The notes: a model not told the origin generated them from the sequence alone. A DNA stretch of 64,000 nt from Octopus sinensis (GCF_006345805.1 NC_043005.1:81654001-81718000); one strand, 5' to 3'; positions 35,520 to 58,868 are shown, counted from the stretch's first letter. Numbers and translations: made by a program.

Positions 35520-35565
35520 TCTTAGAGTTGTTTCTGGGAAATTATGAATATACCTTCATCAGAAA
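35520..35565 (-). ncRNA. Degenerate type I hammerhead ribozyme motif
   Basis: Minus strand: ttt CTGATGA aggtatattcataatttccca GAAA caactc TA aga; core intact, stems II and III mismatched. Confidence 0.55.
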
Positions 35566-35914
35566 CAATATGAAAGGGAGTTAACTAGAGGGAAATAATA
35601 GAGTTCAATATAAGAAGTTATTTTGGAAAAAGGATGGGTATAGAAAGAATAAATGTAAATAAGAGAATAACAATAAAAATGAGAATATATGTAGGGTGTT
35701 AAAGTTACAGTTCTATTAACAAAAGAAAGTGGTGCGTAGAATGGGTAGAAATGCTTCTTGCCCATGGTATAGAGATTCCGACAGGGGTTCATATTTTGTT
35801 ATTACAAATGGATAGTTTACAGACATGAATTCCACAAAGCCTTGGTTTTATTGTCTTATTTTACTTAACACACACACACACAAAGATATATATGTGTATG
35901 TATGTATATGTATG

Positions 35915-35946
<32 letters not shown>

Positions 35947-35958
35947 TATACATACACA

Positions 35959-36052
<94 letters not shown>

Positions 36053-37319
36053 GATACACGTGTGTATATATGACAGCGGTAAATGATTTTATCCAATGAG
36101 ACAAAGCTAATAATATGATATACTAGATAGCTAATCGATATTGATATTGTGGGCTATTTTAAGTGATTTCTTTCGTTCATTTTTCGTTTTTCAAGATGTC
36201 TACATAGTTTTATTTATTACTGTCGAATTGTTGATCCTATGCCAACTGGCACGGTGAGGCAGCATTATGGTTTACGCAAATAAATATATAGGCTAGAAAT
36301 TAATGTGAGCAATCCAGTTTAGATACGAATGAGGAGAAGCAGGTGTTAATACAAAGAGACTTCTGTTTTCATACCGACGGGTTCTTTGAAGATAATTAAA
36401 ATAAATAACACTAACTAAGAATTAGAGAATATATGTTGGATTATTATCATTCGATGCATAACAAAAATTATAATGGAATACAAGGCTTTCTGATTCAAGA
36501 AAATTCTAAAATAAACGAGGGCTGAATTATATGTATATCATGTGTTTTTGCAGTTTTGTTGTGTAGACGTGGTAGTTACTTAATGAGCAGCCCTATTATC
36601 AAATACTTTCATACGAATTTGTTCTGATTTTTTTCAGCTATTTTGTAACCGGGTGTGCATTATTTAAAGAAGGTAAAATATTTCTTGAAGATTTTGCTGC
36701 TCTTTCCACCAGGGTCTATTAATAGCTTGTTTTCTCTCGTAGAGTATTTAATTAATTTCTCCTTGCAAGTAAGAAAGCTATTTCATTTAAGTGGATATCT
36801 GTTTGAATACTTGTATAATGTATAACCGAAATACTATTTGCTAAGGTCTAATCTTGATGATGCCTCGTTACGAGAAATACTAACCCTTACACTTAAGTAC
36901 ATATTTAAACACAATAATACTTATATATTGAACACTAGCATAGCTGAGTGGTTTAGTTGTTTATTTTGCAATGATGTGGTATCTTGTCCAATCTCTCAAC
37001 TTTGAAACAAGCCTCAATTACCACTTCATCGATCGACAAAAGTTATGTGAGATAACAAAGATGGAAAAAGTGAAAAACTATAGGATTTACCAGATATTTA
37101 ATTCAAACATTTAGCATCACTACACTCTGTAGGATTATAGTAAGAGTATAACTCTCTGTGAAAATTTTACATTGACACCATAACTGTCTTTGGTCAGTAA
37201 GAGATGTTTCCTATTTCTATCTATAGATCAAAGGAAATGAATTCTATTCCTTTCAAATTTTGCTTTTGTGACCTGAACACAGACGTTTTAAAATTGACCC
37301 ATTGACCATTACATTTCAG

Positions 37320-37524
37320 AAAGAGTCAAGGTTGAGTTGCTGAAACAGAAATATCGTTATAGCGAAGATTCTGCTCAATGCATCAGATTTGCTCGTTAGT
37401 TTTTCTGACCTAAATTAATTGAGCATATCATTTAGTCGCTGACAATACATGCATCTCTAATCATGAACAGGAGTAGCGGGGGACCATCATAACCATGTAT
37501 TGATAGGAATTCTTTAAGCCTTCA

Positions 37525-37527
<3 letters not shown>
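37320..37527. mobile_element. Repeat family R fragment, inverted relative to the 23-kb copy
   Basis: Reverse-complement similarity to about 23290-23435 and 22660-22815. Confidence 0.65.
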
Positions 37528-37555
<28 letters not shown>

Positions 37556-37713
37556 TATTGAACCCTAAAGAATTCCTACATATATATATATAATATATAT
37601 ATATATTTATATATTGAACCCTAAAGAATTCCTACATACATATATATATATATATATTGAACCCTAAAGAATTCTACATATATATATATATATTGAACCC
37701 TAAAGAATTCTAC

Positions 37714-37775
<62 letters not shown>

Positions 37776-37793
37776 TGGACCCTAAAGAATTCC

Positions 37794-37828
<35 letters not shown>

Positions 37829-54910: not shown

Positions 54911-54953
<43 letters not shown>

Positions 54954-54965
54954 CTTACTCATTAG

Positions 54966-55001
<36 letters not shown>

Positions 55002-55094
55002 TTACTCATTATTATTATATATATATATATCTATATATATATATATTATATATATAACTAATGAGTAAGTATTTCACTTATATCTCACGTATTT

Positions 55095-55150
55095 ATCGCT
55101 GAAGAGGGGAAAATTCTTATGAATTAACCCCGAATTGGTACCAATACGGT
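55095..55150 (+). ncRNA. Hammerhead motif lacking one A of GAAA
   Basis: atcg CTGAAGA gggg...cccc GAA ttggtaccaa TA cggt; 10-nt palindromic stem III. Confidence 0.65.
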
Positions 55151-55293
55151 AATAATGAATTTTTTAGCAATTTCTATCGGTTTGTTTCGAGACGCATAAA
55201 TTATAATGATTATTGACAATTTTTGTCTTTTTTTCGGTATATTTGGCATTAGAATTTTTCTTTGCCCTTATTTTGTAAATTATATATATATAT

Positions 55294-55325
<32 letters not shown>

Positions 55326-55350
55326 ATATATACAGATGGAGAGTGGAAAA

Positions 55351-55370
55351 GATAGATAGATAGATAGATC

Positions 55371-55432
<62 letters not shown>
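55351..55432. repeat. (GATA)n tetranucleotide repeat
   Basis: Visible run. Confidence 0.95.
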
Positions 55433-58400
55433 CAAAGAGACACTGCTAAATACACAGTGTGGAAAGAATGTGTATGTATATACATAACTTTAATTGGATT
55501 CGCAGCCTCTCCCACGAAATAATGAAGACAGCTGTCAAAACACTCTCAGTTGTTTTGCTGAGGCCGCCACCTAATAAACAAGTCCTGATTGATGTAGAAC
55601 ATTCCAGACACATTAACTTCATATTTTAATAATAACTACGTATATATCATGTATTGTGTCCTTGTATTTTATATGATTGAAATATGTTATATGAGAAAAT
55701 CTGGTTGACGTTTTTAACAATTCGAGAGAATTCTTTGTTGATTTAGATAACTTGGGACTGTCTTAGTGTTATAGGATGGCGCGCTGGAGTGGAAGGAATA
55801 GTAAAAATAGTAACTAGTGAATGCAAAGAAAAGAGTAACACTTCCCATACTCTGAACTGAATCGACTAAAGAACCGATAAAATATATTTGAATCATTTAA
55901 TTCCTTACAAATATTGAATCTACAGGTGCTGGAAAAATTAGGCATACTTGAACTGAGTAAAATGTTCTTTCCATTCGAATAAGAATTCGACGATTCTATA
56001 CTTTCTTTTGTCTACCTCTTTTGTCCAACTGCATATTTAGATGTCCAGATGTATGCCTACTTTTGTCCATCTCTCTATGACCAATGAGGGCATAATTCTG
56101 CATTTCTTTATAGTATAATATATGTGGTTTTGTATCACTTCGATTCTTATGTATCCTATTTTTCAAAAGAATTCATGAATGTTCACATTGATTTCGTTAT
56201 CTGTAGCACGTCCCTCTATCGATTTTGAAGACATTTCGGATTTGGCTTGAAACTTTTCTGAGATTTACTGAGTGTCAATAAATAATCTATTTTATCTAAA
56301 CGCCTGTCAATTGTTATGGTGTAAGAAGTAACTATTATGTTACATTTAATTAAAAAACATTCCTTTTTCTGTCCGTGTGTTTCAATTCTAAGTTTTCATT
56401 TTCAATAATACTATAGAGAATTAATGTCTAAGATGAAAATTGCCGTACTGTTTTTTTTTTACCAAAACCGCTTTCCTAAGGGTTTAGGGTTCGGTCTTTT
56501 TAGAAGTAATCAAGAATAGCATTACAAAATATCATTCCATCATAAATAAAGCTACAGTTTAAAAAATTTAAGTTGATAATTTTATCAGTTCTTTTGTCCA
56601 TATGGAGACTTTGTCATTTCGTCAGTCGTTGGTTACTTCATCATTTAGTTAAGCATAGTTACAAGTTCTATTTTAATAAGTACAATATATATTTTAATAT
56701 TAACTAGGTTTCATGGACATGCATGCTGACTAATTTACTTCGGGATTTTTTATTTTATTAATTTTATTGATACTATAAGCTTAATCCCATTAGAGCATAT
56801 TACATCTATTTCGTGAAGATTTCATGATTACTAAGTACGTACAGTGGAATTGATGCTGGACGGAGGAAAGGGTCTTAATAACTCAGCCCCTACAACATAG
56901 TCAGAAATTTTCCCCCTTAATGTTATAGCCGCAAGTAATTGAGGAAATATCTTATATTAGTAATAAGGATATTTTATTTAGCTTATTTTATAATTATCGA
57001 TTTAAATATATTAATACTATAGGAAGAGTGCTTTCATGCGCTAATGAATTTATATGGCATACGTCTATGCCGAGAGTAAGAGTTTGTATCCTGATATCTG
57101 CGATTCTTCGTATGATGACCAAGGTAGAGAACTCTCAACAGCTGATGTTTATATGTACTTCAAACCTCATAGACACTTGCTGTCAGCAACCAGTGATTTA
57201 TTTTTGTTTTTGTTATTGTTTCTTGCAGTGCTGATTTCAATTGCTCGCAATGGAAAGATTATCTCTGATACTAAGCTATTTATAGATGTGTGTGCGCGTG
57301 AGTGTGAATATACATGTAAATACACGCATGCGGTTCTGTGTGTTGTGTTAACCATGAGAAAGACTAAAGAGAGCGTCGACATTGTGGATTCTTACTTGCC
57401 AAAAGGTCTACTTATTTTTGTGTTTCTACACAGAGCAAAATTGAGTGAGCTGTTTAGCAGTAAATGTTTTACTAAAAATATGGCAGCGTCATAGTATCTT
57501 TCGGCTGTATGCCAAGTACTTTATTGACTTGGCTCTGTGTAGCAGGGACGTAATTTCCCCATGAAGTGTTACAGCAGTTAGTTGCATATATATATATATA
57601 TATATAAAACATCCTTTATCTTTCGTGTAAACTAAAACAATTTGAAAAAGCAAAAAAGACAGGAGGAAATTAGGTGTGAATATACCGGAAAAGTTGTATG
57701 TTCTGAAATATACAGAGATATATTTCATGTTTGCAGCTTAAGAGTTGATCATTTAAAAAAAATATTCTTGCTAGAGGAACGCAAAAGTAACTATTAGTTG
57801 CATATTCGAATACACCAAGGGAAGATTATTATTATCATGGAGGACAAAAGTATGCTTTTTAAACATTTTGTTGATAACTATATCATTTGAAGTAGTCGCA
57901 GTAACACTTGCGATTATATTAGTAACACATGATAGAGAAATAATGTCTTTTAACCTCAACTAAGATGTATGTATACACACACACATATATACATATATAT
58001 ATATATATATGCGCCGTTAGCTACTTGACTATGTCTTATTGTTGTCATGCACCGATTCTTCATCTGTCAGCTGAATTTCGGTGAAGCTAATGATAGCAGT
58101 GCATGGGGCGATGTTTGCCTCAGGAATATTGCGTTCAATGCTATATTGTGTATTATTTTACAACTTGATATGGGAAGTGCTATTGCTATAGGTTTAAACT
58201 GTAATATAAGGACGCTGTTATGATAAGAGTGCGTTATTTGTAAAACTACAAACTTCATACATCAAGAGATGCACCTCTGGTTGGTACTCGTTATTATAAA
58301 TGAACCACTCAGAGAAATGATATGTAGATCAGTACTCAGGATACAGCGCAATGATTTAGTGTGTAGCTATATAAATTCTTGTCAGCTGTCGGTGCGGAAT

Positions 58401-58832
58401 CAACTACATATAGAAACTACCGTCGTTTAACCGTTAGAGGAAAAGAAACTCACATAATTATTTTAAGGTGCTATGTACTCTTGGGAGGATTTGAGTAACT
58501 TATGCTTCCAACAGAGTGGACTCTAAATAAGGCAACAAGCGGACGATGGTTTAAGAATGGTACACCAAAACGGAAAAAAATTACTGCTCCGTAGACATTC
58601 TCTCTACCAAGTTGTTGAACGATTCGAGGCTAAAATAGACCAAACTTCTAAAATGCAGTTACGAAGTATCTTAAGCATGCATCTACATATATATATATAC
58701 ATACAAGAGTAAACAATAGAGGCAGAGACAGGCAGAAACAAGGAAAATGACACTGGTCTTTGAACACTATACAAATATTCTTTAAAAAAACCTTTTCATT
58801 TAATTTTTCAAAATTTAATTGTCTAATTGTTA

Positions 58833-58868
58833 CAGTTGAAAAAGTCTCAATGACTGAAACCGGTACTG
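58833..58868 (+). ncRNA. Minimal hammerhead ribozyme, U3-A8 core variant
   Basis: cag TTGAAAA agtc tcaat gact GAAA ccgg TA ctg; stems I and II pair fully and stem III is a palindrome. Confidence 0.72.

Follow-up and report, generated by a model that had tools for sequence, protein, structure and literature searches.

What are the hammerhead ribozyme layouts that recur in an AT-rich, microsatellite-laden part of the Octopus sinensis genome, and how did they come to lie together? The window (the whole 64,000-nucleotide stretch analysed here, GCF_006345805.1 NC_043005.1:81654001-81718000, on contig C9 of the 2.72-Gb assembly) had been given a preliminary description that proposed at least eight such layouts, six of them within 49.5-58.9 kb, belonging to about seven families of ORF-less, Penelope-derived or retrozyme-like elements seated in (TA)n tracts (ORF, open reading frame). 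A hammerhead layout is present at all eight coordinates, although those at 35520 and 55095 are decayed copies and that at 37970 has a broken stem II and a U6 core; six do fall within 49.5-58.9 kb, and genome matches resolve the islands into seven multi-copy families, here called A to G. We conclude that these islands are very probably the 5'-truncated 3' ends of seven multi-copy families of Penelope-like elements (PLEs) that abut (TA)n and have a minimal hammerhead motif. Target-primed reverse transcription is their likely route of insertion, and the motif is predicted to cut the element RNA only as a dimer. A system of this kind has already been described (passages of PMC4209133 and PMC8557442); the U6 core of family F looks undescribed, and the rest of the feature is mostly known. 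The features of the window that bear on this question are as follows.

35519..35566, minus strand: family G hammerhead, a decayed copy, in a 3' end with tail (35312-35834) of a putative Hydra-like PLE
37970..38005, minus strand: family F hammerhead-like motif with U6 core CUGUGGA, a bulged A and ACGU stem III, in the 3' end (~37900-38455) of a putative Neptune PLE
48161..52643 overall, no strand: degenerate long (TA)n tracts holding insertions (48161-50881, 51448-51538, 51910-52643)
49270..49436, minus strand: family A inverted copy with tail, its inner end at the predicted cleavage site (-1)
49435..49700, plus strand: family A direct copy, 5'-truncated, without tail
49567..49609, plus strand: family A minimal type I hammerhead (CCAC/GTGG, CUGAAGA, 5-bp stem II, CGAUUG), predicted cut after 49605
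51092..51171, minus strand: family B hammerhead in an inverted copy with tail (~50885-51262)
51309..51388, plus strand: family B hammerhead with CACGUG stem III, in the direct copy (51261-51451) of a head-to-head inverted pair
54398..54475, plus strand: family C hammerhead with 10-bp stem II, in the 3' end (~54345-54605) of an older, putative Hydra-like PLE
54688..54820, plus strand: family G tail fragment without hammerhead (74% identity, E 2e-13)
55093..55152, plus strand: family D hammerhead, in a partial copy (55061-55281) of a 468-nt ORF-less tandem unit
58833..58868, plus strand: family E hammerhead with U3-A8 core UUGAAAA, in the 3' end (~58703-58920) of a putative Neptune PLE

Seven families and the elements behind them

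Copies of each family share a fixed 3' end, followed by (TA)n, and have staggered 5' ends. First-look genome searches returned 1509 (A), 1407 (B), 483 (C), 2432 (D), 1467 (E), 3901 (F) and 1622 (G) candidates, figures that are not copy numbers, and identity of the best 40 matches runs from 97-98% in A down to about 80% in C and F. A tract of (TA)4 or longer lies 40-330 nt 3' of the cut site in 30/30 copies of A, 25/25 of B, 21/25 of C, 22/25 of D, 23/25 each of E and F, and 15/25 of G, compared with 463 of 1855 control windows (25%), which bears out the proposed insertion into (TA)n. In A, B, D, E and G the distance from cut site to TA falls into two groups, which gives these families an optional tail (about 85, 150, 90, 32 and 140 nt, respectively). 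Inverted partners lie upstream of 15/25 copies of B (at some loci as two halves of one insertion), 6/25 of G and 2-4 copies of each other family; in the window, the A and B islands are both inverted pairs. The idea that 5' breakpoints pile up at the cleavage site, hinted at by the window's inverted A copy (-1), was set aside, as partner breakpoints are scattered at selected loci.

Most copies of A, B, C, D and G have the core CUGANGA..GAAA..UH, and stems I and II are paired across the families. Stem III is minimal and palindromic (near-palindromic in C and D), much as first described; the ttggtaccaa of the window's D copy, however, is not the stem III of that family, which is TTGGGACCAA. The hammerhead of A is identical in 30/30 copies. 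Several window copies depart from their families: at 35520 stems II and III are broken, the family G motif being intact with CAGCTG; the D copy has lost one A of GAAA that is present in the other 24/25 aligned copies; and the copy at 37970 has a mutated stem II, its non-canonical CUGUNGA core being common to family F. The copy at 58833 is not decayed, UUGAAAA being the norm in family E: among the 100 of 681 exact matches that were listed, 97 have U3-A8 and none has C3-G8. The preliminary description overlooked both variant cores, the U3-A8 of E and the U6 of F.

We found no PLE protein matches in the window itself, whose islands lack an ORF because they are 5'-truncated. Longer copies elsewhere, by contrast, run into reverse transcriptase (RT) and/or C-terminal GIY-YIG endonuclease (EN) sequence in A, B, C, E, F and G. 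Linked RT and GIY-YIG ORFs had been suggested as a thing to look for; RT and/or EN sequence linked to six families supports the proposed Penelope origin and overturns, for most of the families, the idea that they are ORF-less or retrozyme-like, D alone being so. Placement of the motif in the pseudo-long terminal repeat (pLTR) of a PLE is direct for A, B, E and F and weaker for C and G.

By its motifs, family A appears to belong to the Hydra clade: its ORF starts directly behind the pLTR and carries RIKWK, SDKT and YRDD, a CTCRDKSNC linker, and a GIY-YIG domain without CCHH, with CYLC and CRH. One copy runs 7,299 nt from hammerhead to hammerhead, and another has ~3.7 kb between ORF and motif. 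At two pairs of A loci (L109+L110, L107+L108) this ~3.7-kb post-ORF stretch is internally repeated, and a long Asn-rich insert lies ahead of the endonuclease. Family B has a 711-aa RT-EN frame with CNLC and CPH, its RT 54% identical to that of A, and we call it Hydra-like only. In family C a decayed Hydra-type RT and then the C motif are colinear at one locus (L257), with a linker, CNCR*KDKC, that reads as CxCX5C with a stop in a decayed copy. Family G has a Hydra-type EN C-terminus upstream in sense at 3/30 loci, with CKLC in decayed copies. Family E, in contrast to a fixed-length short element, an interpretation rejected because its staggered 5' ends lead to an ORF, forms a 4.2-kb pLTR-ORF-pLTR unit (L262) with GLKF, ADKR, a CGRPNCGIC linker and an EN matched by tblastn only, features that would place it among Neptune PLEs. 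An E-like sister family (L458) shares the U3-A8 core and shows a compensatory replacement of A-U by G-C where stem II begins at its base.

Family D stands apart. Upstream of the monomer lies its own tail, with a head-to-tail period of 467-469 nt, and the unit is too short to encode an RT. Two same-strand tandem hammerheads occur in three independent loci of 30 (L193/L195, L196, L205) and an array of more than two units in another (L192/L214), arrays of up to ~2.2 units being seen. We regard D as a candidate 468-nt retrozyme, judged by its sequence organization. A Hydra ORF beside a D array (L260) was considered as the parent of D and rejected, being an interrupted old element on the opposite strand. 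Elsewhere (L433, C2:25.00-25.01 Mb), four hammerheads at a 488-nt period and one inverted lie next to a 70% D-like piece, and this array may be a second candidate retrozyme family.

A near-constant U at core position 6 in family F

Family F does not have the CUGANGA core and is classed here as a variant motif rather than a proven hammerhead. Two 4.5-kb pLTR-ORF-pLTR elements of the lineage carry U6 in both pLTRs and encode GLRF, ADKG, a CSRPRCRTC linker and a CCHH EN (CISCSLC..EH..GH); a Neptune EN also lies upstream at two further loci (L145, L154), and these motifs point to a Neptune PLE. Exact 25-nt patterns occur genome-wide 14,893 times with U6, 172 times with A6 and 390 times with C6 or G6, and the reversed controls gave 0; the A6 form is thus at the level of point mutation, and most of ten A6 loci checked have F-type flanks. 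Among 70 copies chosen by a 3' flank word alone, the core is covered in 52 and not in 18, and position 6 is U in 51, C in 1 and A in 0, while in the same 52 copies N7 is G20/A20/U9/C3 and H17 is A32/U18/C1/G1. Among 40 copies chosen by the U6 pattern, identity between the N7 classes is 68-75% over ~185 nt. The lineage also includes a young U6 subfamily, in which the best 40 matches to a 332-nt piece are 99-100% identical and lie on many contigs, and CUGUUGAA is present in 30/30 copies examined.

RNA reads were compared with a U6 copy in two runs, about 6% of each being read. The matching reads (1,546 and 1,410) fit the 55-nt motif alone and then have unlike flanks, and so come from related families, probably of a related species; contigs of two other organisms gave no match. 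No other letter reaches 8% at position 6 in these reads, and N7 and H17 (U, A, C) vary. Weighing against cleavage, no pile-up of molecule ends was found at any place along the U6 copy, the cleavage site included, and ~1,000 reads per run pass that site, on both strands. What the reads document is that the motif is conserved and that transcription runs through it; they do not show cleavage.

Does the U6 motif cut? It is possible, though we think it doubtful, that the most abundant hammerhead lineage seen here (at least 14,893 exact copies) has a natural A6-to-U core, invisible to CUGANGA descriptors, that nonetheless retains dimer cleavage of PLE RNA, perhaps with altered metal dependence. A fully active variant of this sort, working as a dimer or with another metal such as Mn2+ and selected for cleavage, would fit the near-constant U at position 6 beside variation at N7 and H17, the positions that a hammerhead leaves free, as it would the distance between the N7 classes, the genome counts and the RNA reads confined to the motif; a natural A6C variant, moreover, cleaves with Mn2+ (passages of PMC7151607). 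Against it, changes of A6 lead to low activity according to parts of PMC3088659, minimal hammerheads are reported as weak even as dimers (PMC4209133, in part), no RNA read ends at the cleavage site, and the stems of F are nearly invariant, so that there is no covariation within the lineage and the N7 and H17 states represent few independent events. That the motif is instead catalytically dead, and either kept as an RT-binding, promoter or folding element or carried without selection, is a serious possibility short of an even chance: the RNA reads run through the site, and passages of PMC11167929 report that hammerhead ribozyme mutants of an anole PLE insert normally in vitro, with no RNA-seq ends at the cut site. 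Simple hitch-hiking fits poorly, however, as the motif is constant while its flanks diverge by ~25-30% and variation falls at N7 and H17. The remaining probability, beyond an active and a dead-but-retained motif, goes to trace or conditional activity, and we infer that F retains the U6 motif as a structured RNA element whose cleavage is weak or conditional, efficient cutting being unneeded for the spread of the lineage.

No report of a natural U6 core was found in the literature searched, which took in PMC11014351 but did not extend to Lunse et al. 2017, part of the PMC4209133 supplement, the bioRxiv supplements, Repbase or Dfam; the word ribozyme is absent from the Octopus vulgaris repeat paper PMC13282606. 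The lineage bears directly on the open question of whether cleavage is required of PLE hammerheads. Cleavage by U6 dimers would mean that the core accepted as invariant has been drawn too narrowly and that a very large class escapes standard scans. Failure to cleave would mean that a retrotransposon lineage has spread to many thousands of copies with its fold retained but no catalysis, in favour of a non-catalytic role.

Motif density, insertion and alternative readings of the islands

Under a strict descriptor for type I, which demands a perfect CUGANGA/GAAA/UH core and at least 3 bp in each of stems I and II, the window has four matches, with cores at 49571(+), 51312(+), 51168(-) and 54401(+), and no more than one match occurs in any of 439 local dinucleotide shuffles. 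Allowing one core mismatch gives six window matches compared with 0-5 in shuffles, and a wider descriptor gives five, 58836 being added with U3-A8, against a mean of 0.20 over 743 shuffles. The motifs at 35520, 37970 and 58833 fail the strict descriptor and are accounted for by the family alignments. A candidate at 21668(-) was rejected as being at the chance rate for one-mismatch matches; 55099, from the same set, is real. An Rfam scan, which had been put forward as a check, lent no support: no hammerhead family appears among the 150 of 382 matches listed for the window, and the output is dominated by microsatellite matches to miRNA models. No monomer folds strongly better than its shuffles (z -2.1 to +1.3), as would be anticipated where stem III is nearly lacking.

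Across 40 evenly spaced stretches of the genome (399,900 bases), the wider descriptor gives 18 matches, five of them from one array, compared with a shuffle mean of 1.4. This rate predicts ~2.9 per 64 kb (about one per 22 kb), and the window has five, so that its overall motif density is near the genome average and not exceptional. The canonical minimal hammerhead pattern matches 7,041 times genome-wide as against 21 for the reversed control, and together with the sampled density this indicates that such motifs are common throughout the genome. An eighth, very abundant canonical family (stem II GGCTG/CAGCC), not seen in the window, dominates those 7,041 matches. Within the window, (TA)5+ makes up 19.5% of 48.1-59.1 kb compared with 2.2% of the genome sample, and the local excess of motifs tracks this content.

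How might the islands have formed? What we observe is the anatomy, the coding linkage, the TA junctions, the two 3' ends, the truncation and the inversion. It is plausible that the GIY-YIG nuclease nicks (TA)n DNA, that the RT has two alternative start sites 3' of the hammerhead, yielding copies with or without the tail, and that it usually halts early, leaving 5' truncation; D would be mobilized in trans, with a Hydra-type protein as the likely agent. Where a transcript holds two motifs in tandem, as pLTR-ORF-pLTR or D-D, the palindromic stem III may let them pair and process the RNA, and the single copies in the window are likely inert fossils. Published PLE work, in the passages available, describes GIY-YIG nicking, reverse transcription from two internal start sites and hammerhead cleavage that is dispensable in vitro (PMC11167929), and minimal hammerhead cleavage has been reported as weak and dimer-dependent (PMC4209133, in part), a view supported by a review passage on Lunse 2017 (PMC6765202).

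Could all seven families instead be independent ORF-less retrozymes that spread via circular RNAs? The 468-nt tandem unit of D, with two hammerheads per dimer, the 488-nt hammerhead array of L433 and the lack of ORFs in the window's islands all lean that way, but A, B, C, E, F and G run into RT/EN, which already refutes the proposal for A, B, E and F, and in those six families the 5' ends are staggered rather than unit-length; we consider it very improbable. A functional, host-selected ribozyme array at 49.5-58.9 kb is more improbable still. Six motifs in 9.3 kb do exceed the one descriptor match per ~22 kb seen genome-wide, but 19.5% of the region is (TA)5+, the target of these elements, and its copies differ in age and orientation, several are decayed, and a long interspersed element (LINE) and a Helitron-like element share the same tract. 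The cluster itself is ordinary for a PLE-rich genome. Some observations do tell against truncated PLEs of the clades named above: every full-length copy seen has stops or frameshifts; Pfam searches with 10 PLE protein pieces gave no PLE-specific family and a single sub-threshold RVT_1 match; and the clade labels come from comparing motifs by eye with Hydra-1_Obim as printed and with the clade features given in parts of PMC8557442, not from phylogeny. The CxCX5C linker is absent from family B, GCSSRNKYSNSNA standing in 2/2 independent copies; the RT link of C is one colinear locus, a second locus having an EN but no motif within 10 kb downstream; the coding link of G consists of three decayed loci; and no autonomous partner for D was found. 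For G, two loci (L182/L267) suggested a Neptune element, a reading that was rejected: of the 18 other loci with that untranslated region, at least 10 have an F-type motif downstream in the same orientation, and none has G there.

Other repeats share the window. At 52645-54045 (+), a 5'-truncated LINE RT fragment is nested in the TA tract, with a 372-aa frame at 52817-53932 (Pfam RVT_1, E 1.5e-13) and a 43-bp tandem duplication at 53857-53943. At 51539-51909 (+), a multi-copy element of ~370 nt in TA ends in a GC-rich hairpin-like stretch and CTAG, and its 3' end recurs in 2/40 random genome stretches; we take it to be Helitron-like from its features. Finally, at 15513-15812 and 31532-31885 a very common repeat resembling short interspersed elements occurs as a tandem dimer, with periods of 148 and 184 nt, respectively.

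Comparison with known hammerhead-bearing elements

Minimal hammerheads in PLEs, including U3-A8 cores, opposite-strand pairs and a bulged base, have been published for metazoans (Cervera & de la Pena 2014, PMC4209133, in the parts searched). Like those, the motifs here are of type I with a short stem I and a palindromic or absent stem III; F and G have the extra nucleotide between 9 and 10.1, and E has U3-A8; and copies are mostly single and truncated, with opposite-strand pairs and many unrelated families per genome. F differs in that no U6 core appears in the main text or the supplement searched, the searched supplement making no mention of octopus. Natural substitution at position 6 has one parallel, the A6C hammerhead of phage Bcep176 (passages of PMC3088659 and PMC7151607), in which the base is C, not U, and which is one motif in a phage compared with the ~15,000 copies of F; the preference for Mn2+ has been measured for A6C only.

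The Hydra clade and its (TA)n targeting have likewise been described, with one octopus family, Hydra-1_Obim, listed (Craig et al. 2021, PMC8557442, in the passages available). Our Hydra-type families share with that clade a C-terminal GIY-YIG without CCHH, CxxC/CxH, the (TA)n target and a hammerhead near the 3' end, together with RWK-like and DKT motifs in A and the CxCX5C linker in A and, with a stop, in C; the Hydra-1_Obim hammerhead matches none of the seven families. A spans 7.3 kb, compared with 'generally <3 kb' in that account, and the tails here are ~85-150 nt, compared with 30-40. B lacks the CxCX5C linker, the zinc finger that the same source ties to microsatellite targeting, and despite this its copies (ORF at L259, L268) lie in (TA)n in 25/25 cases; this TA-targeting family is, with the 7.3-kb Hydra element A and the 468-nt candidate retrozyme D, one of the smaller points of interest here. 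E and F resemble the Neptune clade of PMC8557442 in their GxKF-like and DKG-like motifs, CX2-5CxxC linker, CCHH EN and pLTR-ORF-pLTR units of 4.2-4.5 kb, and E also in its tail of ~32 nt; both differ in their non-standard cores, the U3-A8 of E being published and the U6 of F not found in the literature searched. Finally, D resembles the non-LTR retrozymes (Cervera & de la Pena 2020, PMC7229834; bioRxiv 10.64898/2026.07.22.740005; both as far as available) in being a non-coding, putatively PLE-derived tandem unit with one type I hammerhead per unit, and differs from them in its length of 468 nt as against a reported 150-450, its short arrays, and its PLE-type inversions and tails.

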